From contig CAWCMR010000006.1 of NCBI GenBank assembly GCA_963796685.1, positions 261,460-325,459 on the forward strand: DNA of 64,000 bases, given 5' to 3'. Each line of letters starts with the position of its first letter. The first letter of the stretch is position 1. Under the pieces are notes generated by a model that saw nothing but the letters and a program-made list of their open reading frames with translations, was not told the DNA's origin and searched no databases. The DNA comes from an uncultured delta proteobacterium (GTDB taxonomy: Bacteria; Myxococcota_A; Polyangia; Fen-1088). Positions 15,108 through 22,965 of this stretch are shown piece by piece. A program made the translations under genes and the position numbers.

Positions 15108-15214
15108 GGCTAACGCTTTGCCGTTCAGCTGCGAGCCCGTCGCACGAACGGTTCGTTGATGTTACTCCGATTTCCCTGCGGCGGGTTCGTCAGTCTGCAA
15201 CGGCTTGGTTAGCC
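15108..15214 (-). repeat. attC site 1
   Basis: Minus strand GGCTAAC-CAAGCCGTTGCAG...GCTGAACGGCAAAGC-GTTAGCC; toxin stop TAA lies in R''. Confidence 0.92.
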
Positions 15215-15500
15215 ATCGCCAAGTTCGAGCCGACGACGCCACGCCCTCGGATTGCGGCTGCCATGAAAGCAGGCAATCACCACGACGCACTCTGGATAGA
15301 CTCGATACAGAAGCCCAAAGGGAAACCGACGAATCGGCGCGCGACGAACGTCCCGGTAGAGAATCTGGTAGGACTCGGGCAGTTCGGAGATCGCGTTTGC
15401 AGCATGGGTAGCTGCACGAAGGAACTCAGCGCCGCTCATACCAACCGTTCGCGTCAGCCAGATCGGCCTCGGCTGCTGGCCGAAGAATGACCGGCTTCAC
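15209..15500 (-). pseudogene. RelE/ParE-family toxin broken by internal deletion/frameshift
   Basis: GTG start overlapping antitoxin stop gives MKPVILRPAAEADLADANGWYE; the rest (GAEFL...RRFPFGLLYRV...IACFHGSRNP) is in another frame with several residues missing. Confidence 0.8.
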
Positions 15501-15715
15501 CGTGAAGAGCCGATGCGACGAACCGCCTCGTCCCAGGCTGTGCCAGTCGGGCCTTCACGTTCCAGATCATCGAGGCGACCGTCGAGCTCTTCCCGCTGCG
15601 CTGGGGTCAAGGGAAGCAAGCTCGCAGCGGAACCAATGCTGTCCCAGAGCCTCCCGATCAGATCCAAACGCTCATCGGTACTGAGACGATCTACATCGAT
15701 AGCTGGCATGGCCAT
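15497..15715 (-). CDS. Addiction-module antitoxin (TIGR02574-like)
   Basis: LSTDERLDLIGRLWDSI...LTPAQREELDGRL...W motif; immediately upstream of the RelE/ParE toxin. Confidence 0.85.
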   Translation of the reverse strand: MAMPAIDVDRLSTDERLDLIGRLWDSIGSAASLLPLTPAQREELDGRLDDLEREGPTGTAWDEAVRRIGSSR

Positions 15716-15769
15716 GAACGTAGTATTCCACACTGCATCTGTCCTGCCAACCTGCACGCCGTAGCGTAT

Positions 15770-15870
15770 GGCTAACGCTTTGCCGTTCAGCGGCGCGGGC
15801 GCCGCACGAGCGGTTCGTTGATGTTACTCCGATTTCCCTGCGGCGACTGCGCTGCAACGGCTTGTTCGAC
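15770..15870 (-). repeat. attC site 2
   Basis: Minus strand GTCGAAC-AAGCCGTTGCAG...GCTGAACGGCAAAGC-GTTAGCC. Confidence 0.92.
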
Positions 15871-16141
15871 GGCGAACCCTCGTCCTTGTGAGCCTTCGAG
15901 ATTCATCACTATCGCCGCCGCTGCCGGCACCATGCTTCGCCGACCTGCCGCGGTTGCCGCCGCAAGCATTGATCGCTGCCGCAAGTGGCACGAACGGCGA
16001 CGCCCAGTCGCACGCCGACCAGAGATGTCGTCCCGTCCGAGCCCTCAGATACCGTCACCTTCCAAGTAGTTTGTCCGTCGAACGCCTTGCCGTTAAGCTG
16101 CGAGCGGCCGTCCGCGGCCGATCGACAGCTTCAACGGCTTG

Positions 16142-18118
16142 GTGATGCCTGGAGGTACCCATGAAACCATAAGGTGAAAGTCCTGAAGCGGTAGAAGATC
16201 GAAGCCGCATAGCTTGGGTGGCGCCGACATGGGAAATCCTGGCGGCGAAGCCCACCGACAAAGCCCCGCATGGCGGGGCGAGCAAGGGCGCGGGCCGCAA
16301 CGACGAGTGAACGTCTGGACAAGGCCCCGAGATGAAGGAACCCCGGGTGCCGAGCTGGCCAAGTAGGGGCGAAGGCAGTAGGTGACTCCAAACGCGATCT
16401 GGGGAGGCACCGCCCGGCGGGGTAAAGGACGGCAGCACGCGCTCAAGGTCATGGGAGAAAACAGGGAAGGGCTCCTCGCCCCGTGGAGAAAGCCCACGGA
16501 AGCAAGGTAGTCGCGCGAGCCGGAAGGCGAAGTGCGGTGAAGGCGAGAGCCTGACGGATGGGTCCGTATGAGCGAGGAAGCGGGGTAACGCCCGCGGAGC
16601 AAAGGGGCCCTGCCGGAGGCAATCGGAGCAGAGAAGCGAGGCAAGAGCGGGATGACAAAGCCCACCATCAGTTTGCAAGAACTTCGAGCGAAGATAGGCC
16701 AACGGGCGAAGTCCGCCCCTGCGCATCGCTTTTGGGGATTACACGTCCACATCAAGAAACTCGAAACGCTCGAAGCGGCGTACCTGGAGGCCAAGCGCAA
16801 TGGCGGAGCCCCTGGGTCAGACGGCGAGACGTTCGAGATGATTGAGGCGCAGGGCCGAGGAGAGTTTCTCGCGAAACTCGCCGAGGAACTGCGCGCGGAC
16901 ATGTACCACCCGAGGCCGTATCGACGAAGAGAGATTCCCAAGGAGGGCGGCAAAGTCCGCGTGATTTCGATTCCTGCGATTCGAGACCGCGTGGTGCAAG
17001 GCGCCCTTCGGCTGATTGTGGAACCAATCTTCGAAGCCGACTTCTCGGACAGCTCGTATGGGGCTAGGCCGGGACGAAGCGCGCATGAGGCAAGCGAGAA
17101 AGTGCGAATGGGATTGCGCCAGGGCCGACACCGCGTGGTCGACGTCGACCTGTCCCGCTACTTCGATACGATTCGGCATGACCGAATCTTGGCGAAGGTG
17201 GCAAGACGGGTTGTCGACAGCGATGTGCTGGCCATGGTGAAGCAGTTTCTCAAGAGCACCGGCGACCGAGGCGTGCCACAAGGCTCGCCGCTGTCACCCC
17301 TTCTCGCAAACCTCGCGCTCGACGACCTGGACCACGCCCTTGACCGAGGAGGCGGCACCATCACCTATGCGCGATACCTGGACGACATGGTCGTGCTCGC
17401 GGCCGACACCTCCAAAGGGCGGCAGTGGGCAGACCGAGCGCTCGTGCGCATCCGCCAAGAGGCGGAGGCCATCGGCGTGTCGCTCAACGCAGAGAAGACC
17501 CGTCTGGTCACGATAACGGAGCCAGGGGCGAGCTTTGCGTTTCTGGGATTCGAGTTTCGTTGGGAGCGGAAGCTCGAAGACTGGAAGATGGTATCCGAGC
17601 AGAACCCCGCGACCGAAGAAGGTCATCGCGGTCCTACAGGAAGTTGGGAGAATCTTGCGCAGGAGCCGCCACTTGCCTATGCCAGGGGCGGTTGCGCAGG
17701 TGAATTCTGTCCTGCGGGGTTGGGTGAACTACTTTCGTGTCGGCAACTCGGGGACGGCGTTCGGCAAAATCAAGTACGAGGTCGAACGCAAGGTGAGGCG
17801 ACTGGCGGCCAAGAAGTGCAAGCGCAAGGGATTCGGCTGGAAGCGGTGGAGTAGCGCCGTGGTGTACGGAACGTGGGGCCTCTTTCGAGACTACCGCGTG
17901 GTGTACTGGAGCGCGAAAGCATGCCCCGGCGGAACGGACGCATAACCCCGATGGAAGACGCCTTCGCGGTGAGCCGGATGCGGGAAATCCGCCTGTCCGG
18001 TTCGATGTGGCGGGGGCCGGAGACGGAGTGATGGAACCTCTAAACGGGCACGAAGCCGGAAACGGCGGACACAGCCAAGGGGCATCCTGCACACCACCGC
18101 GCCGGTCCCCGACCCGAC
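16142..18118 (+). mobile_element. Group II intron inserted in the attC bottom strand
   Basis: 5' GTGATG, 3' ...CCCGAC; domain V GAGCCGGATGCGGGAAATCCGCCTGTCCGGTTC at 17971-18003; long DVI; internal RT ORF. Confidence 0.9.
16652..17945 (+). CDS. Group II intron reverse transcriptase/maturase, no endonuclease domain (frameshift near 17570)
   Basis: APGSDG, IPK, DRVVQ, SYGARPGRSAH, DLSRYFD, PQGSPLSP, RYLDD, FLGF; maturase LRGWVNYF in the second frame. Confidence 0.93.
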
Positions 18119-18130
18119 TTCGACAGCCTA

Positions 18131-18586
18131 CTACAGTTCCTCGGCAACACGTTTCCACCAACTGTCCCGGGTCATCCGATACTTCTCGACGCGCTCGCAG
18201 AGGTCGGCGCCAGGAGCCGTGCATACATAGTTACCCCGCTCCCAGGATGACGTCTTGGTGTAGCCCATTTCCGTCATGATGTCGAAGGCCTCACTGTACG
18301 TGAGAGCGAACGTAGCCGTTTTCGACACGTCATCGAGATTCCAAACATACGCAATCAGCAGATTAGGGAACTTCGCGTATTTCTGGTCGAGGCCAAAGCT
18401 TCGATTGCTTGCAGCCTTCATCTGTATGGGGCGCGCTCGAAATGTTGGGACACTGGAGAGCAGATCGGCGTAGGCGATGAGGTCGACGCTACGGTCTCGG
18501 AGAGGCAGGGACACCTCAAGCCCGGAACGGATCAACTCGCCGACGAGATGATTGCGTCCGAGCAGCTCAACAATCTGTGAATCCAT
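18131..18586 (-). CDS. Cassette protein, PD-(D/E)XK nuclease-like
   Basis: 151 aa; E..G....EL...G, D..VDLI, PIQMK motif pattern; AAGGAG RBS right after R'. Confidence 0.6.
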   Translation of the reverse strand: MDSQIVELLGRNHLVGELIRSGLEVSLPLRDRSVDLIAYADLLSSVPTFRARPIQMKAASNRSFGLDQKYAKFPNLLIAYVWNLDDVSKTATFALTYSEAFDIMTEMGYTKTSSWERGNYVCTAPGADLCERVEKYRMTRDSWWKRVAEEL

Positions 18587-18604
18587 GCAGATGCTCCTTG
18601 GTCT

Positions 18605-18708
18605 GTCGAACGCTTTGCCGTTCAGCAGCGGGGGTGCCGCCGAACCGGCGACCGGATTCTACACGATGCCCCTGCGGCACCACCGTCTGCTGCAACGGCT
18701 TGTTAGGC
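18605..18708 (-). repeat. attC site 4
   Basis: Minus strand GCCTAAC-AAGCCGTTGCAG...GCTGAACGGCAAAGC-GTTCGAC; upstream gene stop TAA in R''. Confidence 0.92.
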
Positions 18709-20028
18709 GCCGCCCTTCGCCTTCGCGAGCCATGACTTGTATTCTGCTCTTTGGGCCGTAGGGACGGACTGACGATCCAACAGCGCTACGAGCTCTCGAT
18801 AACGAGCTGTGCAGTTCGGATTATTGGCCATCCGTTTACCAAGAACAACGGATGTCTTGGGTGCTTCAAGCATCAAGCCGATCTCCCGGGGAGAGAAGTT
18901 CCGGATCATCTTTTCGTAAGCGGACGTTGCGCCCCGAGAGAATCCCCAAGGATTTCCCACAGCGCAAATGACGACGGCCTCGACATACTCAGGCTGAACG
19001 GTCTCTGGAAGAGCGCCTTGTCCAGCCAGCTCGGCGAGCTGGTCTGCAAATGGAGGCTCGTTATAGAAGTTGTTGAACTCGTTATGCACGGCCAGGAGGC
19101 GTTGACAGACGCGGGAAATGAGGCCATGGCGTTCCATGTCGCTTAGCAGAGCAAAGATACCCAGCTTGGTGAAGAATGTCCGCGAGGCCTTCTGCCGGTC
19201 GACCTTGCCTTCGGCGACGTATTCGTTATGTCGATTAATTAGCTCCGACTTCGTCTTGTCAGAGAAGGTTTGAGAGAAACCTTTGCAGATATCCAGGCAA
19301 TTGACTCGCGTTTCCTCTGAGGAGTTCGGATCACAGAAGACTCCGTGGAGCATCGCAAAGATGAAATCGCGTTGGGAATTATGCGTTGCGCCGAGCCGCT
19401 CGATCCACTTCGAGGTCTGGGTCACTGAGAACTTTCCCGCCTTGAGCGCAGCCAGAAATGCCTGCGTATCGACACCCTTCGGGTTCGTGCCGGAGCCTAG
19501 GGCGTATTTCACGCACCGGTTCAGGAACGCCAGAAGCTCGTGGTCATCCAAGGTTCCGGTTGGAGGATGTGCCGACGAAAAGTTGTTTCTGACCTCTCGG
19601 CACTGGTTCAGAAAGAAGTGGGCTTCCTCATCTACCAGGTTGAGACTCAGGCATAGGTCGAGCAACTCCGAATCCTTAAGATCGCCCAGGGTCTCCTCTT
19701 CGAACGGCTTGCGCGTAATCTGGGCCACGACAGAGAGCCCGAAGCCTCTTACTTTCTCGCGGAGAGCAACCACGGACGAGTTCCAAGCATAGTTTACAGC
19801 TGCGTCGAATAGACCCGCAGCGACCGCCACACACAAACGGGCATGTTGCGCCGTCAACTTGTCTTTCGGAATCCCACCAATCACGCGTGGAAGGGACTGC
19901 CAGGCATGGGCGATCTCGTCGTCCGCAGCGAGCAGCTCGCGCGGAAGCGAGAGAGCCGCAGTCAGCCTCGCGAGCAGGTCACCGCTCGATCCGGTTACAT
20001 CTGGGAGCTTGATGAGTTCCTTCTTCAT
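18703..20028 (-). CDS. Cassette protein with HEPN-like N-terminal domain
   Basis: 441 aa; helical; RNNFSSAH (R-x6-H) motif; GAGGAG RBS. Confidence 0.6.
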   Translation of the reverse strand: MKKELIKLPDVTGSSGDLLARLTAALSLPRELLAADDEIAHAWQSLPRVIGGIPKDKLTAQHARLCVAVAAGLFDAAVNYAWNSSVVALREKVRGFGLSVVAQITRKPFEEETLGDLKDSELLDLCLSLNLVDEEAHFFLNQCREVRNNFSSAHPPTGTLDDHELLAFLNRCVKYALGSGTNPKGVDTQAFLAALKAGKFSVTQTSKWIERLGATHNSQRDFIFAMLHGVFCDPNSSEETRVNCLDICKGFSQTFSDKTKSELINRHNEYVAEGKVDRQKASRTFFTKLGIFALLSDMERHGLISRVCQRLLAVHNEFNNFYNEPPFADQLAELAGQGALPETVQPEYVEAVVICAVGNPWGFSRGATSAYEKMIRNFSPREIGLMLEAPKTSVVLGKRMANNPNCTARYRELVALLDRQSVPTAQRAEYKSWLAKAKGGA

Positions 20029-20142
20029 GTGACTCCTCTCAAGTGCGCCTAAGGTCTCGCGCGAAAATAACTGATCGCATTAGTCTGATTGCGGCGTGAC
20101 TGTGTAGTTCCAGTCACCTCTGAAACGGGCGGGGCGAAGATT

Positions 20143-21554
20143 GGCTCTCCTGACATCTTCATGGAAGCGCGGGCACCTTGAAGACGGGATGAAGGACAAC
20201 GCCTGAGCAGCAGAGGAAGATGAAGCCAATGAGGGCTTGAGCGTTGTGGAAGCCATAGGCCCTGCGGGTGATGACCCTGATCTTGCCATTAAGGCCCTCG
20301 GTTCTTCCGTTATTGAGCCCTGTGGCGACAATGGCCACGATGCCGTCCAGGTATTTCTTGATGGTCGCGGCGACCTTCTTGAAGGAAGGTAGTCTGGATC
20401 GCCTGGCCCAACTGATCCATTCTTCGAGCTTCTGTTTGACGACGTTGACCTGGCGACGACCGAGGATGTCGCAGATGGCGATCTTGAGCAGGTAGCCGCG
20501 ATAGAGTCGGGCATTGGTCTTCGGGAGGGTCGAAAGCCTCTCAGACTCGGCCCTGGATAGGTTCCACGGATTCTTGAGCAGAAGGTACTTGGTCTTCTTC
20601 AGTTGCCCGCGTTCGTCGGTGTCCTCCAGGAGTCGGACCTCCGCACGCCGGAGCTCGTCGAGTGCTTCCTGCACGAGTCTCTGAACGTGGAAGCGGTCGA
20701 AGACGATCTGCGCTTGTGGCGCTCGCGAGGTGACCGCGTCGATGTAGGCCGCGGACATGTCGATGGTGACGGTCTTGAGCTTGCTGGTTCGTTCCGGGCC
20801 GAGAGCGTCGAAGAAGCAGCCGAGCGTCGCAGCGTTCTTGCCCTCGTGGGCCCAGACGACCCGCTGCGAGACGTGGTCGACAACGACGGTGACGTACTCA
20901 TGGTGCCGCCGGTACGACAACTCGTCGACGCCGATGTGTTCGAGGTCCTCGAGGAGAAGGCTAGGATTCTCGGTGCCGCGGCACCACCCGCTGGATGATG
21001 GCGCCGACGGTGCGCCACGCGATGCGCATGGTTTCGGCCACCATCGTCTGGCTTGCTTGTTGGGCCAGATAGGCCACATGGTCCTCGAAGTCACGCGTGA
21101 AGCCGACCTTCGGCTCGGCCCAAGGGACCATCTCGATGACCACGCCGCACCGAGGACAGTCAACCCTGCGCAGGGTGTAGCGCAGAAGAACCTCCATCCC
21201 GCACGCGTCCAGATGCCGCCAGTTCCGAGCCCGAGCATCGAACACGTCATGGACCCGACATCCGCAGCCTGAGCAGTAGGGAACGGTCGTCGTTGGCGCC
21301 ACGTGCACCAATATGCCAAGCAGATCGAATTCGACCGCCAGGACACGGGTATGTGGAAATTGGAGTAGGTTTCGGAATAGGGTGGTTGCGCGCATGGGCT
21401 CCTGGGCTTGTGGGTTCTAGACAAGCCACACGATACCCCAGGTGCCCGTGCGCACTTCGTCTCCACCTCACCCGAAACTCATGCCGCCCACATCTCCGTC
21501 GACGACGTGCGTCGCACCTACGAGATCTCCCCTTACGAAGATGTCAGGAGAGCC
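20143..21554 (-). mobile_element. ISL3-family insertion sequence (1412 bp)
   Basis: Perfect 18-bp IR GGCTCTCCTGACATCTTC; 8-bp duplication CGAAGATT at 20135-42 and 21555-62. Confidence 0.95.
20159..21395 (-). CDS. ISL3 transposase (frameshift near 20970)
   Basis: Zn finger CSGC...CPRC, VPWA; IGVDE, IDMS, DRFH, EGLNGKIRVITRRAYGF. Confidence 0.9.
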
Positions 21555-22797
21555 CGAAGATTGACGGCTTCCATCTCCTCGTGTGCGACCTTGATTCCCT
21601 TTTTGTACGAGTTCCGGTCGGCGGCGGCGCGGATGTGGAGGCCCCGCTTTGTCGTTGTGGCTCCAATCAGATTGACGACGGTTTCGAGAGTCTCAAGCGG
21701 CCTCCCCCTCCAGTTCGCGGTGATGTGGCAGAACATCCGGTGTTCGATCTTGTTCCACTTGCTCGTCCCAGGCGGGTAGTGCGCTACTTGTATCCGCAAT
21801 CCGCTCTCGTCCGCGAATTCCTGAAGTTCTGTCTTCCAAAGACGCACTCGTGCCCCGTTGCTGCCACCTCCGTCCGCAGTGATGAGCAGCTCCTCCGCTT
21901 CCGGATACACTGCCTTGCCCATCCTCTTCCACCAACGACGGATGGTTTCCACTGCAAACTCGGCGGTGTCGTGGTCAATCCCCACGCTCACCCAACCCTC
22001 GTTCCTTGCGAGGTCGTACACGCCATACGGAATCGCCTTGCCGAGTTCCTTGTCAATGAAGTCATGAACCCGGACGGGAACCGGCGAACCCTTCGGCTCC
22101 CATTCGCGGCCTCCGTTCTTGAAATCGCCCAGGTTCTCCTTCTTTTTGGTGTCGACAGAGATTACAGGCAGCCCCTTCGACTGGAACTCCTTCGCCCGGC
22201 GGTTGATGTACTCGAACTGGGCATCTCGGTCTGGATCCTGCTTGCCCTCTCTGGTCTTGTGGTTTGCCTGCAGACTGTAGTCCAGATCCACCAGTAGCTC
22301 TCGCACCTTGGTTGCGCTGACCGGGTGCCCCTGCGCTGTCAGTTCTTCAGCGAGGCGCCGCGTGCCTTTGCTTGTCCAACGAAGCGGCGATTCCGGATCT
22401 CCTCGTGTAGCGGGGTCGATCAGACGCTCAAGGGCTTTGACCAGTTCTGGGTCCTGATCCTCAATGCGTTTGCGCCCAGCACCGGGGCGGCGCACCCTCT
22501 GTTCGCATGGTGCCGCCAATGGCGGCGTCTCCCGCTGCACCTGCAAATCTCTTTTCCCTGCAACGATTCTCTTGTGGCGCAGGCCGGTCGCGCGAGTGAC
22601 GATGGCGACGCCGCCGCGACCCAGTGATTCTGCTTCCGCTGCGGCCCACAGTCGAATCTGGCGCTCATTCAAAATGGGCGTCAGATCACAAAAGAGCTTT
22701 CGAACCCGTTCCACTTCGTCCATATTGCGACACTCTTCCCTTTGAGTGCACAATATACGCAATTGTCCCTATATGCGCTCCTTTATTTACGCGCGAG

Positions 22798-22965
22798 ACC
22801 TAACGCCCTGCCGTTCAGCGGCGAGGGCCGTAGGTGAAGGTCGATAGTAGCACTGCCGGGGCCGCGCGGCGGCCTTCCGATCATCAGATGAGCCGCGCGG
22901 CCCCGGCTCGTTGACCGTCGACCGAGAGTTGACAGGCCCTCGTCCGCTGCAACGGCATGTTCGAC
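22798..22965 (-). repeat. attC site 5 (168 bp), R' partly supplied by the IS end
   Basis: Minus strand GTCGAAC-ATGCCGTTGCAG...GCTGAACGGCAGGGC-GTTAGGT; internal GCCGGGGCCGCGCGGC inverted repeat. Confidence 0.88.

Follow-up and report, generated by a model that had tools for sequence, protein, structure and literature searches.

Insertion of group II introns into integron attC sites is treated as a trait of class C alone in the available text of a 2015 review (PMC4424553), and the later literature, as far as the available extracts go, has added only fragments and loose associations. The group IIC-attC introns (S.ma.I2, Kl.pn.I3 and relatives) have no endonuclease domain and lie antisense in the bottom-strand R'' box, so that the attC is split. 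Extracts of Sonbol and Siam (2021, PMC7923331) give their insertion consensus as TTGT/T, and describe class C as using an intron-binding site 1 (IBS1) of 3-4 bp plus a hairpin. The same extracts report IIB introns associated with integrons, namely H.ha.F1/F2, class E fragments in a Halorhodospira cluster of attC sites lacking an integron integrase (CALIN), and UHB.I2 (CL1). Here we describe a complete group II intron (16142-18118, + strand, 1977 nt) inside an attC of a cassette array, in a stretch of 64,000 nucleotides (the window) from an uncultured delta proteobacterium (contig CAWCMR010000006.1). It shares strand, box, attC splitting and the missing endonuclease domain with the group IIC-attC introns, but it is not class C, and it most probably retrohomed into the attC bottom strand by pairing between its exon-binding sites (EBS) and the intron-binding sites (IBS) of the target. 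Like H.ha.F1/F2 and UHB.I2, it is a non-class-C intron next to attC sequence in an array with toxin-antitoxin (TA) genes; those cases, in the extracts (PMC7923331), are 5'-truncated fragments or a sense intron after an attC, with no defined R'' position. What is new here is that an intron of another lineage is full length, has a position in R'' known to the base, occurs in two attCs and has its pairing explained.

An intron in the R'' box of an attC

The ends of the intron are exact and unambiguous, because excision of 16142-18118 restores GTCGAA|CAAGCCGTTG, the same sequence as in the intact attC at 15855-15870. The intact neighbouring attC reads GTCGAACAAGCCGTTG and, together with a second copy of the intron in the same genome, fixes both ends. 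The intron runs from 5' GUGAUG to GACCCGAC 3'. A first-pass annotation, made from the letters of the window, had taken 16077-18124 as its extent; these positions hold as the outer ends of the split attC, from R' to R'', but not as those of the intron. The 5' exon (16077-16141, + strand) is attC bottom strand, with R' at 16077-16083 followed by L', the loop and L'' as far as ...CAACGGCTTG. Its last 7 nt (16135-16141, + strand) form IBS1, and a possible IBS2 (CTTCA) lies at 16129-16133 (+ strand). The 3' exon starts with TTCGAC (18119-18124, + strand), the remainder of the bottom-strand R'' box, in which the T at 18119 is IBS3. On the intron strand the site reads CAACGGCTTG|TTCGAC, which is G|TT of the bottom-strand R''. 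This position and its antisense orientation had been given in the annotation as CTTG|TTCGAC, and the neighbouring attCs agree with them.

On the - strand these neighbours start with GTCGAAC, GCCTAAC or GGCTAAC followed by AAGCCGTTG... and end with ...AACGGCAA(A/G)GCGTT..., and in the split attC the R'' (GTCGAA|C) and R' (GTTCGAC) boxes are inverse. Inverse R''/R' boxes and an imperfect palindrome, by which an attC is recognised, are present in four intact neighbours and in the reconstructed split attC, and RNAfold gives the ligated site as a long imperfect hairpin (-51.7 kcal/mol). As is characteristic of cassette circles, each cassette opens with six bases complementary to its own R''. The open reading frames (ORFs) of the cassettes lie on the - strand and the intron on the + strand, and therefore splicing of the intron from cassette transcripts should be impossible. 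With R'' now about 2 kb from L'', L' and R', the folded bottom-strand R box would not form and the attC should no longer be a recombination substrate. The cassette whose attC is split (ORF 18131-18586, - strand, 151 amino acids, no Pfam match) would be tied to the next, as the annotation had also proposed, so that the insertion would fuse cassettes and freeze part of the array.

The second copy (C8:662643-666039; C numbers denote contigs of the source genome), which the annotation had missed, is 97.5% identical to the first and gapless over 1925 nt. Its flanks are a different attC, ...CAGCTTCAACGGCTTG|TTAGCCGGCC, interrupted at the same position. The two attCs differ in R', loop and R'' (GGCTAAC/TTAGCC in copy 2, GTCGAAC/TTCGAC in the window), and each is internally complementary, copy 2 having its own matching R' (GGCTAAC). 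We read the two copies as independent insertions into different attCs. Copy 2 is itself interrupted after nucleotide 60 by a 1412-bp ISL3-family insertion sequence (IS; C8:664568-665979), and the 8-nt overlap of its two intron matches is read as the 8-bp target duplication of this IS. The transposase of the same IS is also present in the window array (ORF 20159-21466).

Lineage of the intron and sites of its relatives

Domain I matches the Rfam model group-II-D1D4-4 (RF02003) at 16168-16305 (+ strand) over the full model, 1-138, with 104.4 bits (E 3e-22; gathering score 49 bits). Matches to D1D4-4 were found in 11 of the 19 sources searched, all of them of the window-intron type. Domain V (17971-18003, + strand) is 33 nt long with an AGC triad at 17972-17974. 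The Rfam model of domains V and VI (RF00029) scores 38.9 bits, slightly below its gathering score of 40, an effect of the stretched domain VI. This extended domain VI occupies 18008-18118 (+ strand), and the resulting distance of 115 nt from domain V to the 3' end is kept in 88 pattern matches (83 distinct sequences) across the clade. A consensus fold of 23 sequences, 22 of these 83 plus locus L009 (L numbers denote the loci collected), shows domain V with covarying pairs and then the long domain VI, whose basal helix holds an unpaired A, as expected of a branch point, 7 nt before the 3' splice site (18112 in the window); compensatory change is seen in 22 of the 34 pairs. The 115 nt after domain V are conserved, not junk. 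In B.c.I4 the extra RNA reportedly forms a tail after domain VI, whereas here the extension lies inside domain VI and the bulged A keeps its distance from the end. In both, additional RNA separates domain V from the 3' splice site, by the available text on the altered 3' ends of B.c.I4-type introns (PMC4424553). The 3' end of the window intron, AC, fits the 3' side of the GUGYG...AY ends; its 5' GUGAU is a variant, and is common to all six clade members that have a 5' end.

The reverse transcriptase (RT)/maturase is encoded in domain IV, at 16652-17945 (+ strand), with the RT domain at ~16934-17557, the motif YLDD at 17375-17386 and the X domain (GIIM) at ~17631-17849. The ORF from 16652 matches the Pfam family RVT_1 (E 3.6e-34), and GIIM, the maturase domain, falls in a second frame at 17535-17945 (E 7.2e-15); the Pfam search of the intron protein returned these two and no endonuclease domain. 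The marks listed in the annotation (a full-length domain V with AGC, a long domain VI, the GUGAU end, YLDD and the missing endonuclease domain) are all present in the sequence.

An RT tree of 95 rows and 310 columns was built (IQ-TREE quick search, midpoint root), with support from the Shimodaira-Hasegawa-like approximate likelihood ratio test (SH-aLRT) only; matches of fewer than 240 query residues or with stops (including L009), L001-L005 and the metagenome loci were left out. The window intron, copy 2, L006, L007 and L008 form a YLDD clade of 5 rows (SH-aLRT 100), sister, also at 100, to a FADD-rich clade of 68 rows. Together these 73 rows are separate from the IIC-attC references, two introns on Klebsiella plasmids that were identified by genomic context: L086 lies antisense between arr-2 and aac(6')-Ib, adjoining intI1, and L087 antisense after blaIMP-4. 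The references group at 96, and with L094 at 98, elsewhere in the tree, and all three match the models D1D4-3 and D1D4-1, in contrast to D1D4-4 here. The junctions of L086 and L087 (...TTGT|GTACG... and ...CCCGAT|TA...) are at GT|T in R'', that is, TTGT|T, one base off the CTTG|TT of the window. The independence from class C-attC introns and the one-base shift that the annotation had put forward are thus both upheld, the first by RT tree and RNA type. The features of the intron are those of IIB-type introns, namely a 33-nt domain V with AGC, a 7-nt EBS1 loop and a single-base EBS3. Class C has a shorter domain V with a CGC triad. By RT tree, RNA model, domain V and EBS1 the intron is not class C.

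The RT5 motif in the 95 rows is FADD in 58, YADD in 23 and YLDD in 5, with SADD, FLDD, YCDD and YIDD once each and no motif in 5. All 58 FADD rows are relatives of the window intron, itself YLDD. In the available text of Toro and Martinez-Abarca (2013, PMC3552965), FADD sets apart variety g2 of the former class F (M.xa.I1, Sg.ce.I1, B.th.I3 and others), whose members likewise have no endonuclease domain and whose RNA is of the typical IIB type. Where the annotation had suggested a class E-like lineage, the FADD of the sister clade points to g2, and we tentatively place the YLDD clade beside g2; the clade itself has YLDD, not FADD, and its membership of g2 is conjectural. The RT class differs from the CL1 of UHB.I2. 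Our literature search found no paper on YLDD in group II introns, and PMC8919778 gives no mapping of the Rfam D1D4 models to intron classes. Identification of L090 (B. thuringiensis) as B.th.I3 was ruled out by its insertion site. L089, on pSymA of S. meliloti, is probably RmInt1. Several introns of the FADD clade (L030, L033, L041, L061, L062 and others) have a CGC triad in domain V, not AGC, and therefore CGC is not restricted to class C.

The YLDD clade is small, with 4 of the best 80 genome loci (L006-L009, 76-93% identical) and 2 of the best 80 metagenome loci (L095 and L096, 82%). An attC-like site was sought at L007, L008, L009 and L095, for which the 5' junction and flank are known, and none was found; L096 (5' junction only) and L006 (3' junction only) are not attC-like either. 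The sites are GTGTTGA|C in L007, ATAGTTGT|C in L095 and AAAA(C/G)TTG|TTCAAA in L008 and L009, the last within an inverted repeat that precedes a codirectional gene; the 5' exon of L096 is ACAATTGA|, and the 3' exon of L006 starts with C. The only attC insertions in the clade are the two copies in the source genome. Convergence of the lineage on attC hairpins, as the annotation had supposed, is not supported by these sites: of the homologs that it had advised collecting, the two copies flank attCs, but the other clade members sit at unrelated places. This is not an attC-dedicated lineage. The 5' flank of L009 (~2340-2400) encodes a fragment of another RT (IMEPVFEADFYPVSYGFRPG), and its site may be the remains of another intron. 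Many FADD-clade relatives lie within another group II intron, whose domain V they interrupt one base before its end (...GUCCGGUU|C), as in L011, L018, L023, L036, L037, L043, L045, L058 and others, with a 5' junction near locus position 2487.

Target choice and competing explanations

EBS1 is the 7-nt hairpin loop CAAGUAG at 16360-16366 (+ strand), which forms 6 of 7 pairs with the IBS1 CGGCUUG, one of them G-U, with one mismatch. This loop covaries with the last 7 exon bases in 24 introns, which are drawn from the wider clade and differ greatly in their targets; pair counts made by eye are 7/7 in 16, 6/7 in 7 (including the window intron) and 5/7 in 1. This is in contrast to the 3-4 bp IBS1 plus hairpin that the extracts report for class C (PMC7923331). 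The tentative EBS3, an A at 16425 (+ strand, intron position 284), would pair with the first T of the 3' exon, and the position fits at all 6 informative sites, with A-T in the window and L009, G-C in L006, L007 and L095, and a G-T wobble in L008. Intron positions 293 and 460 were contradicted as EBS3 by L006; a possible alternative, position 143, falls outside the intron segment present in L006. The annotation had suggested looking for both elements; EBS1 pairs with the exon bases as described, and the candidate EBS3 would match the T. Since loop and 5' exon vary together in these introns, targeting looks like ordinary sequence homing, and insertion into attC was apparently guided by ordinary base pairing and not by a preference for attC sites, to judge from the sequences compared. 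The attC family happens to offer a sequence that matches the exon pairing of the intron.

In the mechanism that we favour, EBS1 would pair with CGGCUUG, the spacer plus the first R'' base, and EBS3 with the next T, and retrohoming would leave the intron antisense to the cassettes, at G|TT. As an endonuclease is missing from the protein, single-stranded DNA at a replication fork is presumably used for priming, as suggested by the available text of a review (PMC4424553). The same element would have homed separately into the second, different attC, since the attC family offers the matching sequence in about 45 copies. An intron with ordinary sequence homing would then be able to colonise attC sites, which would offer a natural system for telling apart whether attC DNA is recognised by sequence or by structure, and suggests attC families with conserved spacers as repeated landing pads for retroelements.

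Several points weigh against this account. The tree behind the lineage is a quick one with SH-aLRT as its only support and a midpoint root, and the pairing of EBS1 with the attC is imperfect, as noted above. For EBS2 the window has a 5-bp match (UGAAG/CUUCA), but no consistent covariation was found among the relatives. A folded attC would hide both IBS1 and the possible IBS2, which are part of its stem. Genome-wide there are 117 matches to a 9-nt bottom-strand motif and 50 to a looser form with the following TT; the 13-nt form common to both occupied sites has 10, of which 2 are occupied, 2 lack the TT and 6 are empty attCs with identical 13-nt 5' exon and TT. One-base insertions in the RT/maturase gene stand at nearly the same place in both assembly copies, and therefore both may be dead copies. 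Lastly, no contig of the two public RNA runs X6 and X16 joins 16141 to 18119, although contigs cannot show absence.

These last points bear on whether the window copy is a dead relic, in which a real frameshift at 17570 cuts the protein before the maturase domain and prevents efficient splicing or movement. In the assembly sequence an extra base at 17570, also missed by the annotation, puts the RT and X domains in different frames. Copy 2, broken by its IS as well, has an extra base of its own two positions further on (C, against A in the window), and six matching attCs stand unoccupied. On the other hand, L006-L009 have one open frame (...FRWERSSKTGGWY...) without the extra base, and near-identical contigs without it are present in three of four public runs, X1 (1 contig), X4 (1) and X6 (2), X16 having no cover at 17570; in X6, an RNA library, they make up 72.6 of 147.3 depth. 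Intact alleles of the protein exist in nature. The extra base is either an assembly error or a recent lesion. Our guess for the former is a systematic long-read error at a GAGCTC-type palindrome, which the differing bases of the two copies would fit; such palindromes can be methylation sites. The copies differ at 48 of 1925 positions with a bias to synonymous sites (24 synonymous and 13 nonsynonymous in the RT frame, 3 and 1 in the X frame), a substitution pattern that suggests past selection on the intron protein, X frame included. On this evidence we regard the relic as rather unlikely. A single insertion, with copy 2 arising by integrase-mediated or homologous recombination that moved half an attC with the intron, would account for the 16 identical bases upstream of both copies, but beyond these bases the upstream attC sequences diverge at several positions, R' and R'' match within each split attC and the copies are 2.5% different, so that we consider it very unlikely.

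Recognition of hairpin shape as in class C, with a clade that prefers the 3' foot of bulged stem-loops and pairing that only fine-tunes the site, agrees with the place of both copies in the 3' strand of an attC hairpin and of L008 and L009 inside an inverted repeat. Another intron's domain V also precedes 25 of 96 start-motif matches of the sister clade by a strict pattern, and further ones by eye (matches in 87 of 154 loci scanned, with some 10 spurious internal hits among the 96). However, L007, L095 and L096 have no hairpin just upstream, the 7-nt EBS1 covaries with very different exons, and homing into domain V needs no recognition of shape, since domain V is also conserved in sequence; such recognition seems to us improbable. 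A wider proposal is possible, if somewhat doubtful: that attC homing arose independently once more, in a lineage unrelated to class C whose full-length EBS1 and EBS3 read the conserved spacer and R'' and not hairpin shape. On this view the YLDD and FADD clades as a whole may tend towards the 3' foot of bulged hairpins in single-stranded DNA, with insertions both in attCs, as here, and at the domain V ends of other introns. A divergent class C-attC intron would explain the shared strand and box. The best matches of the RT among solved structures are GsI-IIC (164 bits), TeI4h (93) and LtrA (89), which we take to be class C, CL and ML proteins; to our knowledge no class D, E or F RT structure has been solved. 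The RT tree, the RNA model, the long EBS1, the length and triad of domain V and the shifted site nevertheless contradict such an origin, which is extremely improbable. The preferred reading therefore remains that of a non-class-C intron homing by EBS/IBS pairing.

The cassette array and other elements of the genome

The array extends over 15210-22965 (- strand), with attCs starting near 22961, 18704, 18124 (the split one), 15866 and 15210. No IntI homolog was found in the window, which by that criterion makes the array a CALIN. Elsewhere in the genome, on other contigs or far off on C6, there are three full-length IntI homologs (48-54% identical to IntI1; on C22, C9 and C6:1512-2462), plus fragments. 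Several further cassette arrays of one attC family are present (C25:1551-1566k and 1869-1876k, C10:0.3-7.6k, C2, C22:234-236k and C8:661-672k), an integron complement that is unusually rich for one genome.

The window array includes the ISL3-family IS (~20080-21500) whose transposase ORF is given above, and a ParE-like toxin and antitoxin pair. The latter lies at 15209-15757 (- strand) in adjoining cassettes, each with its own attC, and consists of an Unstab_antitox match (E 4.9e-11) and a weak ParE-like match (E 8.5e-4, below the Pfam cut-off). The pair agrees with the TA richness reported for intron-bearing arrays.

Other group II introns are also present. About 8 copies in the genome are of the D1D4-3 type (class C-like), with an RT 36.5% identical to that of the window, and at one locus (L176, C8:379000-384500) two such copies of 2236 bp stand in tandem, flanked by runs of a ~79-nt repeat. 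The D1D4-6-type intron close to copy 2, at C8:673k, is a truncated copy that lies outside any attC.

In soil and peat metagenomes and metatranscriptomes (X1, X6 and X16) there are contigs at least 90% like the window intron, with other flanks, and the element family is widespread in soils. The same runs also contain an empty attC of the same family, in which ...GGCTTG is followed by TTCGACACC....

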